DNA of 64,000 nt from an uncultured Bacteroidota bacterium (GCA_963703365.1 OY969815.1:2888577-2952576), one strand, 5' to 3'; shown: positions 11,725 through 51,902, counted from the first letter of the stretch. Notes: generated by a model from the letters alone, not told the origin. Numbers and translations are program-made.

Positions 11725-12213
11725 ATGCTTATGTTTCAACAGACCATCGACGCATCTAAGGTAATACAGCTCATGGTCGCGCCGGCAGTGATGATTAGCG
11801 CGTGCGGGCTTCTAATCCTAGGTGCGAACAATAAATATTCAAATGTCCTGAACAGGATACGTCTCATCAACGACGAGAAGCGCCGCCTTGTCATAAGAAC
11901 GGCGGATCATAAAGCTACACCGGAGGAAGACCTTCGTCTCGAGAGCACCGTGCGACAATTGAATCATCTCCGCATTCGCGCAAAAATGGTGAGAAATTCA
12001 GTTATGAGCTACACAATCGGTGCAGCACTTTTCGTGATCAGTTCGCTTCTGATAGGGCTCGCGCTGTTTCAAGGATTTGTCGAGATACATTACGTCTCGA
12101 CTGCAGTATTTCTACTCGGGATGATAATGGTATTTGTCGGTGTCATATTCGGGTTACTCGAATCGAAAAAAGGCTATGAGATTGTTCAGCTTGAAATAAG
12201 TGCGGAAGAATAA
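11725..12213 (+). CDS. DUF2721-like small membrane protein
   Basis: The N-terminal segment QLMVAPAVMISACGLLILGANNKYSNVLNRIRLIN and two C-terminal TM helices match my recollection of the DUF2721 architecture. Confidence 0.55.
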   Translation: MLMFQQTIDASKVIQLMVAPAVMISACGLLILGANNKYSNVLNRIRLINDEKRRLVIRTADHKATPEEDLRLESTVRQLNHLRIRAKMVRNSVMSYTIGAALFVISSLLIGLALFQGFVEIHYVSTAVFLLGMIMVFVGVIFGLLESKKGYEIVQLEISAEE

Positions 12214-19201: not shown

Positions 19202-20380
19202 ATGGCGGACAAAGCAAACATAACACCAAACGTGCTTAAATGGGCGAGAGAGTCAGCAAGAATAAGCGAAGAAATTGCGGCCTCTAAGGTTTCTGTATCT
19301 GTTGATAAACTTAAAGAATGGGAAAGGGGTACAAGCCAGCCAACAATAAGGCAGGCTCAAACACTTGCAAAGGCTTATAAGCGTCCATTCGCATTATTCT
19401 TCCTTCCTGAAATCCCAAGAGACTTTCAACCACTTCAAGACTTCAGAAAGAAGGATTCAAAGGCATTAGGGACGGGTTCTATTTTTATCATTCGTGAAAT
19501 CCAACAGAAACAAGCTTGGATAAGTGAAGTAGACGAAGAAAACGGCGAAGAAAAAATACCTTTTGTTGGCCAATTCTCAATTAGGGATAATCCATTAGCA
19601 GTAGCGAACGATATATTGAATGCACTCGGTGTTGTCCCTTCACATTACACGACTGATAATCCAATAAGAGAATGGATTGATAAGGCAGAATCAAAAGGAG
19701 TCTTTATTTCACGAACAAGTTTTATTCATCCAAAATTAAAACTGGATAGCGGAGAGCTACAGGGTTTCGCTATTGCAGATCTCTATGCTCCGTTTGTATT
19801 TGTTAACTCGGAAGATTGGGATGCTCCACAACTATTTACTCTCGTTCATGAGCTTGCACATATCTGGATAGCTGAAACCGGTATTTCAAATGAAATTGAA
19901 CCTGAAATAAAAAACAGGGACAAGTTTCATCCTGTAGAATTGTTCTGTAATGAAGTAGCGGCTAATGCTCTTATACCCTCCGACATTATTAATGATCTGG
20001 AACGTGACATTTTCAAATCAGCTAAGGAAGTTTTTAAGGTATCTAAAAGTCTAGGAGTAAGTTCTTTTGCTTTTTTGGTAAGAGCCCTAAATCTCAACTT
20101 GATCTCCCATGATATTTACAAAAAACTGAAGCATGAAGCAGATATGGAGTACAGGGCATTTTTGAAAAGAGCAGAAGAAAAAGAAGCAAAGGGTAAAGAC
20201 AAAGAAAAGAAAGGTGGACCTAGTTACTATTTATTGCAACTAAACAAGAATAGCCGGCTATTTACTCGGACTGTTTTGGACGCCTTTCATGGCGGTTTCA
20301 TTGAACCGACACAAGCAAGTAGCCTGCTAAACGTTAAAGTAAATAAATTTTCGCTGTTGGAAGCGCAACTGCATAAATGA
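19202..20380 (+). CDS. XRE-type HTH fused to ImmA/IrrE (M78, DUF955) zinc metallopeptidase
   Basis: The N-terminal HTH is LKWARESARISEEIAASKVSVSVDKLKEWERGTSQPTIRQ. The HEXXH motif is VHELAHIW. A Lys/Glu-rich C-terminal helix follows. Confidence 0.8.
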   Translation: MADKANITPNVLKWARESARISEEIAASKVSVSVDKLKEWERGTSQPTIRQAQTLAKAYKRPFALFFLPEIPRDFQPLQDFRKKDSKALGTGSIFIIREIQQKQAWISEVDEENGEEKIPFVGQFSIRDNPLAVANDILNALGVVPSHYTTDNPIREWIDKAESKGVFISRTSFIHPKLKLDSGELQGFAIADLYAPFVFVNSEDWDAPQLFTLVHELAHIWIAETGISNEIEPEIKNRDKFHPVELFCNEVAANALIPSDIINDLERDIFKSAKEVFKVSKSLGVSSFAFLVRALNLNLISHDIYKKLKHEADMEYRAFLKRAEEKEAKGKDKEKKGGPSYYLLQLNKNSRLFTRTVLDAFHGGFIEPTQASSLLNVKVNKFSLLEAQLHK

Positions 20381-20883
20381 GTCCAACAGCAGACATCTAT
20401 TGCTTAGATGCCAATGTACTAATTCAAGCCTGGCAGAAATACTATTCACCTAAATTTTGTCCCGACTATTGGCAAGTTTTGGATGAGCTTGGAAACCGAG
20501 GAACCATATTCGTGCCTGAGATGGTACATGAAGAAATTGTCAGAACGGATGACGACTTGTCGAAATGGTTAATGAAAAGTAAGATTCCCGTTCGCAAAAT
20601 TGATGAGGCGGTTACCAAATGCTTACAAAGTATTTATTCTAAAAATTCAACACATGAACTCCTTGTTGATAACACAAAGTATAGATCGTTAGCGGATCCC
20701 TGGGTGATTGCCCATGCGATCAATGAGAGAGCAATTGTCGTGACAAAGGAAGAAAAAATAACAGCTTTAAATTCGAGCAAAATAAAAATACCGAATGTGT
20801 GTGACAACATGGGTGTACCCTGGATTAACGACTTTCAATTAATTGAGAAACTTGGCATTCGATTTAATTGTAAGCTGACATGA
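20377..20883 (+). CDS. DUF4411 (PIN-like nuclease fold) protein, putative toxin/effector partner of the ImmA-XRE protein
   Basis: YCLDANVLIQAW...YYSPKFCPDYW...LADPWVIAHA...VVTKEE...KIPNVCDNMGV matches the DUF4411 pattern as I remember it. It overlaps the upstream gene by 4 bp (ATGA). Confidence 0.7.
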   Translation: MSPTADIYCLDANVLIQAWQKYYSPKFCPDYWQVLDELGNRGTIFVPEMVHEEIVRTDDDLSKWLMKSKIPVRKIDEAVTKCLQSIYSKNSTHELLVDNTKYRSLADPWVIAHAINERAIVVTKEEKITALNSSKIKIPNVCDNMGVPWINDFQLIEKLGIRFNCKLT

Positions 20884-27285: not shown

Positions 27286-27443
27286 CTATTCCTTACGCGT
27301 CCTTTCAAGTTGTTATTTGTTAAGACTTAATCTAAGTAAAGATAGAGTTGCCGGGTGCTATTGTCAAGGGAAAGGTGGTCCTCTTTGGTCACCGTCGTGG
27401 CGAGTCGCCTCGTTCGTTGCAACGATATTTATTACACAACGTA

Positions 27444-27480
27444 GAGTAACCAAATTGACAGATGAGCGATTTGGTTACTC
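27444..27480. other. Perfect 12-bp inverted repeat (hairpin or operator) between the TonB receptor gene and bfr
   Basis: GAGTAACCAAAT - 13 nt - ATTTGGTTACTC. Confidence 0.5.
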
Positions 27481-27567
27481 TGATAAATCGCGATTCAAGA
27501 CGGCGGGGTGTACCACCCTGGAACAAGATGACAGATCACCCCGTCGAACCCAGATAAAAACTATTCT

Positions 27568-31874: not shown

Positions 31875-33077
31875 ATGGAGACCGTGATATTAGCAGTCAT
31901 TGCGATAATTCTCGTCGTCATAATTTTTATCTTTATCCAATTCAAAAGTTTATCGACGAAGCAGCAGTCATCCTCAGAACAGGCTGTTCAGCTTTTCACG
32001 ATTTTCAAATCTGATGTTGAGTCTGCGGTCAAATCGGCTGCCGAGACAACTCGTTCCAACAACGAAAATATGGCAAGCACGCTGAGGCTTGTCAGCGATT
32101 CACTGTCGAAGAGTTTGGATGACAACCGCGCCGGCACAAATGCTCAGGTTGAGCAGCTCGCAAATCAAGTGTCCCAGCTTGCTGGCTTAGTCGGCAAGCA
32201 AGTTGAGAATCTGCGCGGGTCAGTGGAAGAGCGGCTCACAAACTTCAGTTCTCAACTTGGCGGCCAGCTTTCCGAGGCGAACAAACTTTTTTCGTCATTG
32301 AAGCAAGATTTCGGTGAGCTGAAGGAATCGAGCAGCAACATGCTCGAGATCGGGAAGCAGATAAACCAACTGCAGAACATTTTAAGTTCGCCAAAGCTTC
32401 GAGGCAATCTTGGCGAGACGCTTCTTGAAGAATTGATCAAGCAAGTCATACCACAAGGCTTCTACGAATTTCAATACACGTTTCGCGACGGCTCAAAAGT
32501 GGATGCGATCATAAAAACTTCCGAAAGAATAATTCCCATAGACTCGAAATTTCCGAAGGATGAGTTCGAACGTTACGTTAATGCGGAAAATGAGTCTGAA
32601 AAAAATAGCGCCATGACGAAATTTTCGAAAGTGATGAAGGATCAGATCGACGACATTGCGGAGAAGTATATTAAGCCGACCGAAAACACGTTCGACTTTG
32701 CAATCATGTTCATACCTTCAGAGAGCATGTACTACGAGATTTTGATGCAGGATGGAGATGAGAACGGCGCGTATCGTTACGCCATGAAGAAGCATGTGAT
32801 CCCCGCATCGCCGAACAGTTTTTACGCATACATTCAGGCGATTGCAATCGGGCTCAAGGGGATGCAGATCGAAAAGAACGCTCAATTAGTCCGCGACCAG
32901 CTTGCCCAGCTGGAAAATTCTCTTGTAAAGTTTGACGATCATTTCGAGACGCTCGGCACACATCTAAAGAATGCGGCGAATAAGTACAACGATTCACACG
33001 AAGCGCTCGGAAGATTCAGAGAAAGGCTTCAGGCAATTGCGAAGTTAGAAGATAAAGAGCCGCCGAAGATTGTGTGA
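31875..33077 (+). CDS. rmuC: DNA recombination protein RmuC
   Basis: N-terminal TM segment plus coiled coil. RGNLGETLLEELI and the C-terminal RmuC nuclease-like region (MFIPSESMYYE). Confidence 0.85.
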   Translation: METVILAVIAIILVVIIFIFIQFKSLSTKQQSSSEQAVQLFTIFKSDVESAVKSAAETTRSNNENMASTLRLVSDSLSKSLDDNRAGTNAQVEQLANQVSQLAGLVGKQVENLRGSVEERLTNFSSQLGGQLSEANKLFSSLKQDFGELKESSSNMLEIGKQINQLQNILSSPKLRGNLGETLLEELIKQVIPQGFYEFQYTFRDGSKVDAIIKTSERIIPIDSKFPKDEFERYVNAENESEKNSAMTKFSKVMKDQIDDIAEKYIKPTENTFDFAIMFIPSESMYYEILMQDGDENGAYRYAMKKHVIPASPNSFYAYIQAIAIGLKGMQIEKNAQLVRDQLAQLENSLVKFDDHFETLGTHLKNAANKYNDSHEALGRFRERLQAIAKLEDKEPPKIV

Positions 33078-33121
33078 ATTAAAATGTTGTGTAGAAAATG
33101 TTTTGAGGACGCGCTGTTTCA

Positions 33122-33146
33122 CGTCAGCTTGAGCCACTGGTTAGGC
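33122..33146 (-). repeat. attC-like half site (R''-L'' arm only) at the distal end of the cassette array
   Basis: The minus strand reads GCCTAAC-CAGTG-GCTCAAGC-TGACG, starting 7 nt after the stop of ORF 33154-33651. It is 24/25 identical to 33797-33821. I found no matching L'-R' arm towards rmuC. Confidence 0.55.
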
Positions 33147-33153
33147 GGTGCGT

Positions 33154-33651
33154 TTATTTTTCTTTATGAATTAAAGTTGATAATCTAATACCGAACTTCA
33201 TCTCATTTTTTATATTTTTTGTGAAACCAGTTGCTTCAAGTGAATCTGGCGGAATCAATTTGAAATTAGAAGTCACGGGTTCAACAGTTTTATTGATGCT
33301 AATAAGTTCATTAGTGCTTACAGAATAAATAAATGTGAATGCTTGCCATGGTTGATGCCCACCAGAGCTTAGCATACCAAAAACAAAAAACTGCGAATTG
33401 GCTGTCCATTCCGCTTGAACCACACCATACCCATGCTCGTGATCTTTTGATGCATAATTTGTATCTAATATAACTTTCCCTTTATGGTTAAATATTTGAA
33501 TCCTACTTTCAAGTAAAACTCCCCTCTCGGCAATATTATAAACAATAGCACGCATGTTCTTATCAGGAGAAATGAATTCGCGCATATTCCGCGCCGCAAC
33601 GAATGAAATAAAAATAAATAGACTGAGCAATATTTTTATTTGTATTGACAT
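33154..33651 (-). CDS. Cassette ORF 1: small secreted protein of unknown function
   Basis: It has an N-terminal signal/anchor (ILLSLFIFISFVAA). attC-like sites flank it at 33122-33146 and 33672-33821. Confidence 0.6.
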   Translation of the reverse strand: MSIQIKILLSLFIFISFVAARNMREFISPDKNMRAIVYNIAERGVLLESRIQIFNHKGKVILDTNYASKDHEHGYGVVQAEWTANSQFFVFGMLSSGGHQPWQAFTFIYSVSTNELISINKTVEPVTSNFKLIPPDSLEATGFTKNIKNEMKFGIRLSTLIHKEK

Positions 33652-33671
33652 AAAGTATCTCTTTTAGTATC

Positions 33672-33821
33672 GCCTAATGGACTGGAGCTAAGCTGCGGCG
33701 ACGTGCAGCCAGTTCCACGTAGAATACACGCGCGAGAGACATTGCCAATTCCCTAAATTTTCTTTTGCGCGCGGCCAAATCATCGACGGCTGGTTCCGTC
33801 AGCTTGAGCGACTGGTTAGGC
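33672..33821 (-). repeat. attC-like site, about 150 nt (long class)
   Basis: Minus strand: GCCTAAC-CAGTC-GCTCAAGCTGACGG ... CCGCAGCTTAGCTCCAGTCC-ATTAGGC. The arms pair with two single-base bulges (G33806, T33799) on one arm. Confidence 0.6.
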
Positions 33822-33834
33822 AGTTTTTGCATAA

Positions 33835-34431
33835 TTATGGCAACACTTCAACAGTCGTTTTAAATAATGTATTTTGATTTACCCACGCTGGAATTTCCGA
33901 GTTTGTTTGTTCCATAAAGTGGAGCAATATTTTACTGGCAACATCGGATGCAAACTTCCAATCTCTTTTTGTAAAAACGTGACCGAAAATCTTGTTCACC
34001 TTATCAGGTTCGGAAGATGGATGAGCTACGAAATCTCGAGTCACCTTGACAACTTGTAGAAAATCATTCCAGAGAGTTTGATCTTTTAAATGAATTGCCT
34101 GAATGCCAAGAATCTCAGCTAGCACCTTTAGTTGTTCTTTGACTTCTTTTAAATCTGAATTCATTAAATGTTCAAAGCCCTGCGCCTTCGGATATTTCAA
34201 TTGGAGAAGCTTATCACTCGCGTTCCATATATCCCACAATTGCTCTGAAGCAAATGCTTGGATTGTCATGTATGCAAAAAAATATGCCTGAGATACAAAG
34301 GCGAATATAAATGTACCTGGCAAATAAGATTCTTCATTGCTGATGGTTTTGGGAATACCTTTTATGGGATCATATATGAACGCGCGAGATTGTTCCAAAT
34401 AAGATTGAACCGGCAGAATTTCAGTTTTCAT
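33835..34431 (-). CDS. Cassette ORF 2: helical protein with an Rx4H (RDFVAH) HEPN-like motif
   Basis: 198 aa, no signal peptide. The motif VKVTRDFVAHPS sits in the C-terminal half. The ORF is bracketed by a perfect 15-bp inverted repeat (33815-33829 / 34450-34464). Confidence 0.6.
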   Translation of the reverse strand: MKTEILPVQSYLEQSRAFIYDPIKGIPKTISNEESYLPGTFIFAFVSQAYFFAYMTIQAFASEQLWDIWNASDKLLQLKYPKAQGFEHLMNSDLKEVKEQLKVLAEILGIQAIHLKDQTLWNDFLQVVKVTRDFVAHPSSEPDKVNKIFGHVFTKRDWKFASDVASKILLHFMEQTNSEIPAWVNQNTLFKTTVEVLP

Positions 34432-34457
34432 TAGATTGATTTTCCTTCACAAAAACT

Positions 34458-34522
34458 GCCTAACTATATATAGTTATCCTGCCGTATATCCACATAGCAT
34501 TCCGGCAGTGAGAATGTTATGT
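34458..34522 (-). repeat. attC-like site, 65 nt (short class)
   Basis: Minus strand: ACATAAC-ATTCTCA-CTGCCGG...loop...CGGCAGG-ATAACTATATATA-GTTAGGC. The R box pairs 5-6 bp and the inner stem CTGCCG/CGGCAG pairs 6 bp. Confidence 0.5.
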
Positions 34523-34543
34523 TCCAATAAGATTTTACTACCC

Positions 34544-34966
34544 TCATTTATTCCTGTGTTCCCCTTTCATGAATGGAATATATTTCTGATCCATACCTAT
34601 GATATGGCTAATCCACCAGGTCTTCAAAAATTGAAACACATCCAGTGAAATATCGCCAACAAATGTCCGTTGGTGCCGCATGATCAGCTCGGTTGTTTTT
34701 TGCGTGAAAGCTTTATGGCTGGCTCGATGAGCTTCGAAGTCCGGATAATGGCGCTCTTGCATCAAGGCTTCTTCATCTTTCAGATGCGTATACACATATC
34801 TCTCCATCTCCGCCAAAATGGAGCCCACGATCTGAACTTGTTGTTTTTCCTGTATTGCCCAATACAATCTATTAATCACCTCGAAAATCTCACGATGTTG
34901 CGAGTCGAGTCTTTCTATCCCTACACTATACTCGGGCTTCCAAATCATAAATTCAGGGTTTGACAT
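34544..34966 (-). CDS. Cassette ORF 3: bacteriohemerythrin-like protein
   Basis: W.PEYSVGIERLDSQHREIFEVIN...H...E pattern of hemerythrin cation-binding domains. Confidence 0.8.
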   Translation of the reverse strand: MSNPEFMIWKPEYSVGIERLDSQHREIFEVINRLYWAIQEKQQVQIVGSILAEMERYVYTHLKDEEALMQERHYPDFEAHRASHKAFTQKTTELIMRHQRTFVGDISLDVFQFLKTWWISHIIGMDQKYIPFMKGEHRNK

Positions 34967-35008
34967 GGCTCCTCAAAAAGATAAATGTGATTTTTCCTAG
35001 ACATTAAT

Positions 35009-35207
35009 CACCCAAAGAACCGGAGCTAAACTGCGTGCGGTAGAATATTGAATAACAATCTGCGGCGCCCCGTTACTCCGATATTATTTATTTGTTGAAT
35101 GGAAATTTACTTGGTGAAACTCGTAAATACAACTAAACTTTTGTGGCTCGTGAGGCTGTGAATTTTCGTACACCGCAATTTCAGTTAGCTCGAGCGATTA
35201 GTCAGGC
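35009..35207 (-). repeat. Decayed attC-like site, about 200 nt (long class)
   Basis: Minus strand: GCCTGAC-TAATC-GCTCGAGC... and a far arm ...CAGTTTAGCTCCGG... homologous to 33672-33700. The inner stem is retained (GAGCTAA(A)CTG / CAGTTAGCTC) and the R box is degraded. Confidence 0.45.
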
Positions 35208-35222
35208 ATTTACATGGCGAAC

Positions 35223-35663
35223 TCATAGCAAGCGTAGAGCATAGATCAGCGCTATCAATGATGCTGCGATAAGAATGGGCGATGAATAGACTCCAGGCAG
35301 AAAATGTCTCTTATAGAGGGAACTTCCAACATGTCCGAGGCCGTTGCCGATCATCATTATGGAAAACGGCACCGCCGCTATGATGATCCATCTCGTACCG
35401 CGAAAGGCAAATGGGCTTAACACGAGCAAAAATCCTACCAGGGCGGACAAACCGGCGATCCAAACTCGAAAGGAAAACGTCGGCAGCGGAATCCACGGAA
35501 ACCTTTGACGAAGCGCCCGCACCGTTGGATTGTAAACCGCCAGAAAGTCCGTGATAGCCTCGTCGGCCACATGAAGAGCCAAGGCTCCCGCCAGTCCGAG
35601 CCAAGACCAGCCAAAATGGACTGTCTCAACTGACCACCATCTTGGGTTATATAGAGGGTTCAT
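35223..35663 (-). CDS. Cassette ORF 4: small polytopic membrane protein, HXXEE-domain-like (HVADE)
   Basis: Four hydrophobic segments and the LHVADEAITDF motif. It is GC-richer than its neighbours and spawns shadow ORFs. Its ATG lies 1 nt after the GTTAGAC core. Confidence 0.55.
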   Translation of the reverse strand: MNPLYNPRWWSVETVHFGWSWLGLAGALALHVADEAITDFLAVYNPTVRALRQRFPWIPLPTFSFRVWIAGLSALVGFLLVLSPFAFRGTRWIIIAAVPFSIMMIGNGLGHVGSSLYKRHFLPGVYSSPILIAASLIALIYALRLL

Positions 35664-35664
35664 C

Positions 35665-35711
35665 GTCTAACTACAATTAGCCTGTCATGGGTCCGCATAA
35701 CCTTCCGGCAG
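35665..35711 (-). repeat. Partial short-class attC-like site abutting the panB stop
   Basis: It is homologous to 34458-34508 (ACTGCCGGAA.G.TATG.GGA....CAGG.TAA...TAGTTAG.C) and ends in GTTAGAC 1 nt before the ATG at 35663. I saw no convincing R'' partner. Confidence 0.4.
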
Positions 35712-35725
35712 TAAAAGCGCTCTTC

Positions 35726-36541
35726 TTAGTAGCTCTCTTCCTTCGACGGAAATTTTCCCTTCTTAACATCATCTATATATCTGATAAAAGCATTGTGCAT
35801 CTCTTCGGCAATGTTTGCATAGTGGCGCACGAAGCGCGGCTTGAATTCCTGAGTCAGCCCGACCATGTCCGCATAAACAAGTATCTGTCCGTCACAATGC
35901 ACGCCTGCTCCGATTCCGATCGTCGGGATCTTGATGCTCTTTGTAACCTTCGCGGCCAACTGCGCGGGAATTTTTTCGAGCACGATCGAGAACGCCCCGG
36001 CGGCTTCGAGAAGTTTTGCATCGGCTAAAATTCCTGTCGCCTCGGCCTTGTCTTCTCCACGAGGTTTGTACCCGCCGAATTTATTTATCGACTGCGGAGT
36101 CAATCCGAGGTGTCCCATGACAGGGATCCCAATTTCCGTCATCCTTCGAACCGATTCGGCGATTGCTTTACCGCCTTCCACTTTCACGGCACTTGCACCG
36201 GTTTCTTTTAAAATTCTCCCCGCATTCCTGAGTGTTTCCTCCGCATCGACCTGATAACTCATGAACGGCATGTCAACAACGACAAGCGCACGCTTCACTG
36301 CCCGAGTTACAATCTTGGAGTGGTAAATCATTTCGTCCAGCGTCACCGGGATTGTCGTATCGTTTCCTTGAAATACATTCGAGAGCGAGTCGCCGACAAG
36401 TATTATATCGATGCCGGATTCGTCGAGTATGCGCGCGACAATTGCATCGTACGCCGTCAGCGCACTTATCTTCACGCCGTTTTTCTTCGACAGGACTATC
36501 GTCCGCGTCGTTACCACTTTTGGCTTTTCTGTCTCGATCAT
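35726..36541 (-). CDS. panB: 3-methyl-2-oxobutanoate hydroxymethyltransferase
   Basis: [10 protein letters not shown]...ILVGDSL...PFMSYQ...VKVEGG...GHLGLTPQS. Confidence 0.95.
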
Positions 36542-49966: not shown

Positions 49967-50179
49967 ATGCCGCGATACAAAGTTGGATTGGCTCGAACTT
50001 GTTCTGTTACGATTGAAGCAGCCAATGAAGAAGATGCGAAAGGGTTAGCGGAGTTCTTCATTGTTGAACGGGACGGCTCAACAGTCAGAGATCAAGAGCA
50101 ATTTGGATTCAAAATTGAGGAAATTGAACTGACGTATAACGATTCCTTTGAATGCGAAGAAACAGCAGAGGCAAGTTGA
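49967..50179 (+). CDS. Small acidic protein (70 aa), function unknown, first gene of the R-M island
   Basis: AGGAGG lies 5 nt upstream of the ATG. By my count it has 17 acidic versus 7 basic residues. Its stop overlaps the methyltransferase ORF. Confidence 0.5.
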   Translation: MPRYKVGLARTCSVTIEAANEEDAKGLAEFFIVERDGSTVRDQEQFGFKIEEIELTYNDSFECEETAEAS

Positions 50180-51150
50180 GCAAGTCCAAGTCGGGGGGTA
50201 GAAGGAAGTCCAAGAAGCAAATCCCGCTCAAAAAGCAAAATGTAAGATTAGTACGCACTGGAGTATCCGAGCCAGCGTCATCTTATCGCTTGGACATTTC
50301 CTCTACGACTTCTCCGTTAGCACTAGATTCTGTGATTTGCGGGGACGCATTTGAAATGTTGAAGTCTTTCCCGAATGACTGTATCGATCTCGTTGTCACA
50401 TCTCCGCCGTACGCTGATAAACGAAAAGACACATACGGCGGAATTCATCCCGACAAATATGTCCAGTGGTTCTTGCCTATTGCGGCAGAGCTTAAACGTG
50501 TTCTTAAGCCGACTGGAACTTTTATCCTAAATATCAAAGAAGGAGTTGTGGCGGGCGAGCGGCACACTTATGTGATCGAACTAATTCTCGAAATGAAAAA
50601 ACAGGAATGGCTGTGGACGGAGGAGTTTATCTGGCATAAGAAAAATAGTTTTCCTGGGAAATGGCCAAATCGATTTCGAGATGCTTGGGAGCATTGCCTC
50701 CAGTTTAACAAGGAAAAATCATTTGCGATGTACCAGGGAAATGTCATGGTGCCGATGGGCGATTGGGCGAAAGGTCGACTTAAAACATTGGGGAAGAACG
50801 ACGTGGTACGTTTTGATTCACAAGTTGGCTCCGGCTTTGGCAAGAACATAGCAAACTGGATAGGCCGCGATATGGCTTACCCTAATAATGTCCTTCATAT
50901 GGCAACCGAATCAGGCAACAAGAATCATAGCGCTGCATTTCCGGTTTCATTACCGGAATGGTTCATCAAACTATTTACAAAACAAAACGACATTGTCCTT
51001 GATCCATTTCTAGGATCAGGAACGACCGCAGTGGCAGCGAAAATTAATAACAGAAGGTATATCGGTATAGAGATTTCAAAAGAGTTCTGTAATATTTCTG
51101 AAAAAAGGATTAAACAGGTAATTGCCGAGGCAGGAGATCTTTTTCCATGA
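50152..51150 (+). CDS. Beta-class N4-cytosine/N6-adenine DNA methyltransferase
   Basis: Motif IV DLVVTSPPYADKRK lies N-terminal to motif I VLDPFLGSGTTAVAA, which is the beta-class order. The start is uncertain. Confidence 0.85.
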   Translation: MRRNSRGKLSKSKSGGRRKSKKQIPLKKQNVRLVRTGVSEPASSYRLDISSTTSPLALDSVICGDAFEMLKSFPNDCIDLVVTSPPYADKRKDTYGGIHPDKYVQWFLPIAAELKRVLKPTGTFILNIKEGVVAGERHTYVIELILEMKKQEWLWTEEFIWHKKNSFPGKWPNRFRDAWEHCLQFNKEKSFAMYQGNVMVPMGDWAKGRLKTLGKNDVVRFDSQVGSGFGKNIANWIGRDMAYPNNVLHMATESGNKNHSAAFPVSLPEWFIKLFTKQNDIVLDPFLGSGTTAVAAKINNRRYIGIEISKEFCNISEKRIKQVIAEAGDLFP

Positions 51151-51902
51151 AGAAATTAAACCTCAAAGATGTTGAAAACTATATTGAGCAGAATATTGGA
51201 ACCTTTCACCAAAAACGGATTGAAAGCCTTGACGAACTAAAGCTTAAAGAAGTTCTCAGTAAAAAAAATCCATACTTATTCAAAGCAAAATATGTGCTAA
51301 CTGCTGAACAGATCGTCAAGGGGATTACTGATGCGCATATTTCTTCAAATGAGGAAACCATTTTCGGTGATTGGCTTGAAGGCCTTGCAATTTTCATCAA
51401 TGGAAAAGTGTATGATGGAAAGAAATCCGGCATTACTGGAATTGATTTAGAGTTTGATAAAGATGGGACGAGATATATTGTTAACATCAAATCTGGTCCA
51501 AATTGGGGGAATAGTAGACAGGTACCAGGTATGATCGAGGACTTCAAAAGAGCCAAGAAGACTCTTCGAACGAGTAGTTCTAAATTAAACGTGGTTGCCG
51601 TAAACGGATGCTGTTATGGCAAAATCAAAAATCCAGATAAAGGCGACTATTTCAAATACTGTGGACAAAGATTTTGGGAATTTATCTCCAACGATCCCGA
51701 TCTGTACACGAAAATCATTGAACCGCTTGGACACAAAGCAAAAGAAAAGAATGACGACTTTATGGGATCTTATTCACAAATGATAAATAGATTCACACGT
51801 GAATTTGCGAACAACTTTTGCAAAACGGACGGTTCAATCGACTGGGAACAGCTCGTCATCTTCAACAGTGGGAATTCCAAACAGGATTCGTTTAAGTCTT
51901 AA
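51147..51902 (+). CDS. Putative type II restriction endonuclease
   Basis: It overlaps the methyltransferase by 4 bp (ATGA) and is AT-rich. The N-terminal FHQKRIESL...LSKKNPYLFKAK resembles the N-termini of several REase families as I recall them. I could not pin down a catalytic motif. Confidence 0.5.
   Translation: MKKLNLKDVENYIEQNIGTFHQKRIESLDELKLKEVLSKKNPYLFKAKYVLTAEQIVKGITDAHISSNEETIFGDWLEGLAIFINGKVYDGKKSGITGIDLEFDKDGTRYIVNIKSGPNWGNSRQVPGMIEDFKRAKKTLRTSSSKLNVVAVNGCCYGKIKNPDKGDYFKYCGQRFWEFISNDPDLYTKIIEPLGHKAKEKNDDFMGSYSQMINRFTREFANNFCKTDGSIDWEQLVIFNSGNSKQDSFKS

Follow-up and report, generated by a model that had tools for sequence, protein, structure and literature searches.

A small integron cassette array, very probably decaying and without its own integrase, at the panB-rmuC junction of a Candidatus Kryptoniota chromosome

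We analyzed a 64-kb stretch of DNA from an uncultured bacterium (the window, to which all coordinates refer), which is part of a 3.15-Mb metagenome-assembled contig (ENA ERZ25039519 contig_57257). Four minus-strand open reading frames (ORFs) are located between the stop codons of rmuC (33077) and panB (35726). We consider it very likely that they form a small, decaying array of integron cassettes without an integrase of its own, that is, a cluster of attC sites lacking integron-integrase (CALIN; Cury et al. 2016, PMC4889954), at a lineage-specific panB-rmuC junction on a Candidatus Kryptoniota chromosome. A preliminary description of this DNA had proposed a CALIN, or else a decayed portion of a chromosomal integron, in a genome of the Fibrobacteres-Chlorobi-Bacteroidetes (FCB) group, and this proposal was supported by the covariance-model, repeat-family and synteny tests given below. 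The lengths of the ORFs, which are 146, 140, 198 and 165 aa in the order from panB to rmuC (ORF4 to ORF1), and the positions of the two stops were verified in full.

Boundary sites match an integron-borne attC family

An integron cassette consists of an ORF without a promoter and, after it, an attC recombination site, and is moved by the integron integrase (IntI). The integrase acts on the bottom strand of attC folded as a hairpin, in which the R and L boxes are paired and a G is extrahelical, and exchange takes place at the AAC/GTT triplet. The sites that bound the ORFs of the array are the following.

33078-33146, minus strand: truncated terminal attC, with R'', spacer, L'' and a variable region of about 45 nt; no L' or R'
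33672-33821, minus strand: attC2, near-canonical 150-nt attC of the "152-nt class" (model R2, 110.6 bits, E = 4e-28)
34458-34522, minus strand: attC3, short-class 65-nt attC-like site (from the sequence, a DNA fold and a five-copy alignment)
35010-35207, minus strand: attC4, decayed long-class attC (model R2, 16.4 bits, E = 0.005; direct repeats)
35665-35712, minus strand: S0, short-class attC-like remnant (ACTGCCGG...ACAGGC...GTTAGAC)

Every motif listed in the preliminary description was found at its position on the minus strand: GCCTAAC at 33146-33140 and 33821-33815, ATTAGGC at 33678-33672, ACATAAC at 34522-34516, GTTAGGC at 34464-34458, GCCTGAC at 35207-35201, and GTTAGAC at 35671-35665, one base ahead of the ATG at 35663. 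Bare RYYYAAC/GTTRRRY heptamers are expected about once per kb per strand by chance, and therefore prove nothing alone. The 25-nt R''-L'' half GCCTAACCAGT[GC]GCTCAAGCTGACG occurs twice in the window, compared with no match in 100 shuffles. A third, degraded copy of this half lies at 35207-35183, with the 3' half repeated at 35035-35007.

The most complete layout was seen in attC2, where R'' GCCTAAC, the spacer CAGTC and L'' GCTCAAGC are followed by a variable region, L' GCTTAGC, an 8-nt 3' spacer (TCCAGTCC) and R' ATTAGGC. Pairing of L'' with L' leaves one extrahelical C on the top strand, which is a G on the bottom strand. The site thus shows the imperfect L''/L' repeat that includes an extrahelical base, and its spacers measure 5 and 8 nt. 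This bears out the proposed likeness to the R''-spacer-L'' layout of 59-base elements, since attC2 has R'', a 5-nt spacer and an L'' with one unpaired base; attC sites of the aadA7/aadA type have the same L''/L' layout, also with one unpaired base. A 52-aa ORF at 33674-33832 lies wholly within attC2, and is almost certainly a spurious frame arising from the GC-rich variable region of the site.

We built a full-length covariance model (R2) from 88 independent metagenomic sites of this family, none of them from the lineage of the window; the model is family-specific, not generic. Searched against the 64 kb, R2 matched 33821-33672 from end to end (110.6 bits, E = 4e-28), the sole non-standard pair being R' position 1, and 35197-35017 over model positions 11-152 (16.4 bits, E = 0.005). 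It gave no other significant match in the 64 kb. The covariance-model check suggested earlier therefore returned two attC hits, which lie 1.2 kb apart on the same strand, so the interval holds two or more attC sites within 4 kb, as a CALIN does. A trimmed-arm model (R1), from which the variable region had been removed, could not bridge sites of 150 nt and returned only noise (best E = 1.4), and R2 was therefore used instead. Rfam gave no family in the window at gathering thresholds.

The same sites are widespread outside the window. A metagenome scan with the pattern GCCTAACN5GCTCRAGCTGAC matched at least 120 contigs; 41 of these carry 2-6 copies, spaced by 362-4107 bp and never in mixed orientation. 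L' (GCYYAGC) and GTTRRRY follow downstream in 122 of 189 matches, at the discrete distances of 129, 152, 158 or 196 nt. Contig L119 carries IntI1 and then a cassette with a family site, while in L114 the family adjoins a divergent IntI (TIGR02249, 342 bits against a cut-off of 265). Homologues of the latter, P0018 in L141 and P0020 in L142 (TIGR02249, 453 and 454 bits), adjoin divergent arrays of the same sites on contigs of 3.64 Mb and 72 kb. The cognate integrases lie on contigs that also encode type IX secretion system tail (Por_Secre_tail) proteins, as in the FCB group. We conclude that the attC family of the long sites is integron-borne. One further recombinase, in L027, was IntI-like by BLAST and was not counted, as it reached 170 bits against the same TIGR02249 cut-off.

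Covariation within the family agrees with the proposed pairing. Across 102 non-redundant independent sites, 12 of the 22 proposed pairs vary on both sides, and 91.7% of the pair-by-sequence cells are paired. The covariation score was 0.121, against 0.057 in shuffles, none of which reached the observed value (0/500), and 0.016-0.057 in slid registers. In the minimum-energy DNA fold of its bottom strand, attC2 pairs its R and L boxes.

The other sites are less complete. In attC4 (R'' GCCTGAC, L'' GCTCGAGC, L' GTTTAGC, R' TTTGGGT), the L''/L' pairing is retained through G-T pairs. The terminal attC abuts the rmuC stop and is conserved in the two closest relatives, L003 and L004; it matches the 5' half of the family at 25/25 nt, and gets only 4.8 bits if scored as a full site. 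The corresponding site of L004 was rejected as a complete attC, its 23.6 bits being due only to a chance CTTAGGC in rmuC that mimics R'. At the other end, S0 has R' and no R'', marks the head boundary of the array, and is 72% identical to the short site at 34509-34464. As for the core sites, both R'' and R' fit RYYYAAC/GTTRRRY in attC3, R'' alone fits in attC2, neither fits in attC4, and the terminal site has R'' only. The intactness of the sites that the earlier picture implied did not hold: the rmuC-side site is a 5' part only, and the panB-side site is without R''.

The array lies at a lineage-specific synteny break

The RmuC relatives found among GTDB genomes are all Candidatus Kryptoniota or "Bacteroidetes" metagenome-assembled genomes (MAGs). 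The host is a Candidatus Kryptoniota, consistent with its earlier placement in the FCB group. The rmuC-panB junction is common only to L003 and L004, whose RmuC proteins are 97% and 92% identical to that of the window. In 12 more distant relatives (L005-L016), panB is not near rmuC, and the rmuC stop (around 11200) is overlapped or closely followed by the start of a large gene (818 aa in L016). In 11 of these 12 the start overlaps the stop as TAATG or TGATG; in L013 the gene lies about 100 nt downstream. Since the junction with panB is found only in close relatives and rmuC has another neighbor elsewhere, the array lies at a lineage-specific synteny break: the clade of the window lost the linkage between rmuC and the large gene, and the breakpoint is where the cassette array now lies.

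Between the same conserved end sites, the three genomes hold different ORFs, and their homology breaks at attC boundaries. L003 has one unrelated 206-aa ORF in the interval. L004 has a hemerythrin gene (85% aa identity to ORF3) and then an unrelated 242-aa ORF. Compared with L004, the window has an extra unit of the HXXEE gene (ORF4) plus attC4 at the head of the array, and has ORF2, attC2 and ORF1 in the place of the 242-aa ORF. The hemerythrin homology block shared with L004 (35011-34470, 542 nt) starts at most 4 nt from the predicted cassette boundary and ends inside the short site, and the terminal homology blocks (33149-32928 with L004, 33140-32928 with L003) begin at R''. ORF1 and ORF4 are absent from both relatives. 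The four ORFs are thus not conserved between panB and rmuC, which is the outcome that the cassette proposal had predicted for the synteny test. The junction of rmuC with ORF1 is reproduced exactly by a separate short-read Logan contig (run ERR11748453).

Cassette 2 occurs as a unit in other arrays

The cassette ORFs and the flanking genes are given here from rmuC to panB.

31875-33077, plus strand: rmuC, the convergent downstream flank (Pfam PF02646, E = 1e-61)
33154-33651, minus strand: cassette 1 ORF (ORF1), 165 aa (143 aa according to gene finders), with a hydrophobic N-terminus
33835-34431, minus strand: cassette 2 ORF (ORF2), 198 aa, all-helical, with an invariant TRDFxxH motif
34544-34966, minus strand: cassette 3 ORF (ORF3), bacteriohemerythrin, 140 aa (NCBIfam NF033749, 124.9 bits against a cut-off of 84)
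35223-35663, minus strand: cassette 4 ORF (ORF4), HXXEE-motif membrane protein, 146 aa (Pfam PF13787, E = 3e-7; GC about 0.52)
35726-36541, minus strand: panB, ketopantoate hydroxymethyltransferase, the upstream flank, co-oriented with the cassettes (Pfam PF02548, E = 3e-113)

ORF2 was found as a cassette of other arrays. Its homologue P0002 (80% identical) lies between two complete family attC sites in L139; P0004 is likewise a cassette of another array, and L140 (a 75.8-kb contig) carries a frameshifted homologue. In the window, L139 and L140, the cassette starts with GTTAGGCAGTTTT and ends with AAAACTGCCTAAC. Cassette 2 starts with 15 nt (34464-34450) that are exactly reverse-complementary to its own end (33829-33815), a match for which we estimate about 0.004 chance occurrences per 3 kb. 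Complementary ends of this kind are predicted by a circular intermediate, and the same complementarity between start and end is present in all control arrays. ORF2 therefore behaves as a gene cassette, the same unit with complementary ends recurring in other arrays. By reading of the sequence, the 242-aa cassette of L004 shows a start/end complement of 10/12. The preliminary description had seen such complementarity in both ORF1 and ORF2; it was demonstrated for cassette 2 alone (15/15 nt) and not for ORF1.

The ORF2 cassette carries an attC of 150 nt in the window (33835-34431), 158 nt in L139 (256-852) and 196 nt in L140 (9738-10342). This spread of size classes for one cassette suggests that attC variable regions can be exchanged, or homogenized, within an array.

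As claimed earlier, base composition differs between the cassettes: GC steps from 0.36-0.38 in ORF1 and ORF2 (about 0.37) to 0.42-0.45 in ORF3 (about 0.44) and 0.51-0.53 in ORF4 (about 0.52), the flanks being at 0.44-0.51. The nearest homologues of ORF4 (72%) are Verrucomicrobiota/Opitutaceae genes in an ordinary chromosomal context, with no family attC. Given these relatives and the higher GC, a foreign origin of ORF4 would fit.

For the remaining genes, ORF3 is a hemerythrin by Pfam as well, and ORF1 matched no Pfam, NCBIfam or PADLOC family. ORF2 gave nothing significant in the same three collections; its AlphaFold2 model (pLDDT 64) had no fold match in the PDB (best E = 0.75), and its assignment as HEPN from the TRDFxxH motif is speculation. 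PADLOC had no match for any of the four window ORFs. The suggestion that these cassettes might be toxin or defense genes was therefore not borne out, and such a function is supported for none of the four.

No integrase lies near the array

The absence of an integrase from the window, as first described, was confirmed. In tblastn searches of the whole 64 kb with IntI1 and four other integron integrases, only chance matches were obtained (E > 1), and Pfam detected no recombinase among 10 window ORFs of 270-470 aa. Neither an integrase nor a remnant of one was found in the roughly 30 kb that flank the array on each side, or in the loci of the relatives. The array thus has no integron integrase nearby, as in the definition of a CALIN (4 kb, with a pseudogene search within 10 kb). 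It does not qualify as a complete or sedentary integron, as the window has no intI and only four cassettes, and the sites are heterogeneous and decayed.

The scan for promoters and terminators gave counts equal to the shuffle expectation, and there is no terminator-like site on the minus strand after the panB stop. As the cassettes run in the same direction as panB, with no terminator-like site between, read-through from the panB operon could express them in place of an integron Pc promoter; we only infer this mode of expression.

Short elements are attC-like

Alignment showed that five short elements are homologous, of which the window and L004 have two each and L003 has one. In attC3, R'' ACATAAC and R' GTTAGGC flank the stem CTGCCG/CGGCAG, and the AAC and GTT triplets are intact. 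Its DNA fold has z = -2.4, with the CTGCCG stem in the centroid. The stem is bulge-less, with no extrahelical base at the L boxes, and the 3' spacer is 13 nt. The family-specific model R2 did not detect the short sites, and no member of the short family was found in about 770 kb of other loci, fetched arrays included, so that it is known at the panB-rmuC locus only. Because of the bulge-less stem, the long 3' spacer and the absence from other loci, we call these elements attC-like only. The earlier reading of the 65-nt sites as attC is in keeping with their layout, which resembles that of short attC sites, but it is weakened by the missing extrahelical base and by their restriction to one locus.

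In L004, the orthologue (12017-12086) of the window site 34458-34522, which also follows the hemerythrin gene, has R'' GCATAGC and R' GCTAGGC. Relative to the window, a paired change from A-T to G-C keeps the R boxes complementary, and the AAC/GTT triplets are lost. This single case may be due to chance.

Weighing the alternatives

Several observations weigh against reading the locus as a CALIN. The only near-intact site, attC2, has a G to A change at the crossover (GTT to ATT), and both conserved triplets of attC4 are mutated (GAC and TTT). R-box pairing in attC4 is predicted with a probability of 4e-5, where control sites have a median of 0.45; the measure failed to separate real from interior-shuffled sequences, and is therefore informative for attC4 only. 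The folding energies of the long sites cannot be told from those of shuffles (z = -0.10 and 0.08), unlike that of the short site. The two end sites are both truncated, the rmuC-side one lacking L' and R' and the panB-side one R''. The short elements, bulge-less and confined to this locus, may not be attC at all. Our identification of attC rests on a family-specific model rather than on the generic model of IntegronFinder. No IntI was assigned to the genome of the window among the 120 listed of 7755 IntI homologues. Finally, the differences in content among the relatives could reflect homologous replacement of the whole interval and not the action of IntI.

The repeats might instead be lineage-specific hairpins, either of the repetitive extragenic palindromic (REP) or miniature inverted-repeat transposable element (MITE) kind or terminators, with incidental AAC/GTT cores. 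The restriction of the 65-nt elements to the panB-rmuC locus, their want of an extrahelical base and the long-site folding z-scores near 0 are what such hairpins would give. However, the long sites are full-length matches to a family that stands in same-strand arrays beside TIGR02249 integrases, and the end complementarity is specific to the cassette. Outside the array and the orthologous locus of L003 and L004, no further copy of either half-site was found in the window or in 14 related Kryptoniota loci (252 kb); in the sequence covered, the repeats do not behave as the dispersed family that the preliminary description had named as a refutation. We regard this explanation as very improbable, and for the long sites it is close to refuted.

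A different question is whether the array still moves. It could be the live satellite of a complete integron elsewhere in the genome, with IntI still inserting and excising cassettes in trans, and hence active and not a fossil. Three close relatives with three cassette sets between the same end sites, and breakpoints at attC boundaries, speak for this, as does the HXXEE-attC4 unit, whose position is that expected from attC x attC insertion at the head site. MAG contigs of the same ENA series as the window's contig (ERZ250395xx) contain complete integrons with the attC family seen here. Half of the CALINs lie in IntI-encoding replicons, and CALIN cassettes may be mobilized (Cury et al.). On the other side are the crossover damage in attC2 and attC4, the missing IntI assignment noted above, and the hemerythrin unit, which has not moved since the split from L004. 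We think that an active array is possible, though somewhat unlikely. Rather unlikely, in our view, is the stronger version in which a trans-acting IntI still edits the array in nature and the 65-nt elements are an undescribed, bulge-less class of attC that it can use. If this were true, the cassette sets of three sister species would be natural evidence that IntI in trans inserts and removes cassettes in a CALIN.

Conversely, the long sites could be true attC relics that no integrase has acted on since the array was stranded, with the relatives differing through homologous recombination in the panB and rmuC flanks. The flanks are 81-95% identical in DNA among the three genomes, the end sites are conserved in all three, and the sites appear non-functional. 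However, the window and L004 share the hemerythrin block and differ on both sides of it; breakpoints inside the array, at cassette boundaries, would therefore be needed. We consider recombination in the flanks quite improbable as the sole source of the differences.

Origin of the array and comparison with known systems

On the CALIN reading, the array may once have been the distal piece of a complete integron, from which it was severed when a rearrangement brought panB next to rmuC. Alternatively, it may have been built on a secondary site. The first origin fits better, because both ends are truncated and the locus is a synteny break; secondary-site insertion is disfavored, because a complete distal attC would be expected and the distal site has neither L' nor R'. 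Later, IntI acting in trans may have added the HXXEE gene with attC4 at the head, and may have swapped ORF2 and ORF1 with the 242-aa ORF. As the sites are decaying, most of the array is probably now fixed.

CALINs are common, with 279 in the 2016 survey and 2961 in RefSeq 2022 (PMC9024848), and integrons have already been reported in the Bacteroidetes/Chlorobi group (PMC9024848). The locus resembles them in having at least two same-strand attC sites within 4 kb, each after a short co-oriented ORF, with no intI or pseudogene near. It is also small, where CALINs average 5-6 sites, and its cassette functions are unknown or non-resistance. Its location at a rearrangement junction fits the proposed origin (iv), an integron split by rearrangement. 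Unlike typical cases, it was detected here with a family-specific model, its terminal sites are truncated and its internal sites are damaged.

Sedentary chromosomal integrons (L141, L142 and the long L140 array, or the Vibrio or Xanthomonas superintegrons) share the cassette architecture and a content of mostly unknown function. The likeness to the L140-L142 integrons extends to the attC family (R'' GCCTAAC, L'' GCTCAAGC, L' GCTTAGC, R' GTTAGGC, 150-200 nt) and to the ORF2 cassette. In contrast, the window has no intI, attI or Pc and only four cassettes; sedentary integrons carry many near-identical sites, whereas the sites here are of two size classes and decayed. Separately, L140 (ENA ERZ25039473 contig_17822) was seen to hold at least 24 same-strand family attC sites in 20 kb (1-20342), with ParE/Phd toxin-antitoxin pairs, a HEPN_AbiV protein, methyltransferases, insertion sequence elements and a Por_Secre_tail protein as cargo, and probably represents a sedentary chromosomal integron from an organism of the FCB group.

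The aadA-type attC of class 1 integrons is laid out like attC2: R'' RYYYAAC and an 8-nt L'' that leaves one base unpaired are separated by 5 nt, and after a variable region comes a 7-nt L', separated by 8 nt from R' GTTRRRY. A family member follows IntI1 in L119. The window site differs in length, at 150 nt against 60 nt, through a much longer variable region. Its context is chromosomal and not a mobile element, and there are no resistance genes. Cassettes at secondary sites (attG; Loot et al., bioRxiv 10.1101/2022.09.11.507474) likewise lie outside attI, beside housekeeping genes, and co-oriented with a host operon able to express them. There a complete distal attC is expected, whereas the truncated distal site of the window points to truncation.

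The locus is thus a further example of a well-known CALIN type, with no new mechanism. A full-text literature search for "Kryptonia" together with "integron" gave no match, and the locus adds a documented cassette array to Candidatus Kryptoniota. It ties this array to a large attC family that is widespread in environmental metagenomes and whose sites fall into classes of 129, 152, 158 and 196 nt. On a small scale, the comparison of three genomes cleanly illustrates how cassettes are gained and replaced in an array without an integrase, and it bears on how CALINs arise and what becomes of them, a modest question that integron biology has yet to settle.

Other features of the window

A near-perfect palindrome, GAGTAACCA-(21 nt)-GTTACTC, lies at 27438-27486 between genes for a TonB-dependent receptor and a ferritin, in a Fur/FeoAB/catalase neighborhood. 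Both attC models match it at chance level (E ~1), and it is probably an operator or terminator, not an attC.

At 19202-20883, an ORF of 392 aa with HTH_3 and Peptidase_M78 (ImmA/IrrE) domains overlaps the start of a 168-aa ORF, a two-gene layout typical of toxin-antitoxin or defense-regulator pairs. At 50152-51902, an N6/N4 DNA methylase gene (332 aa) overlaps the start of a 251-aa ORF, and the two may be a restriction-modification pair.

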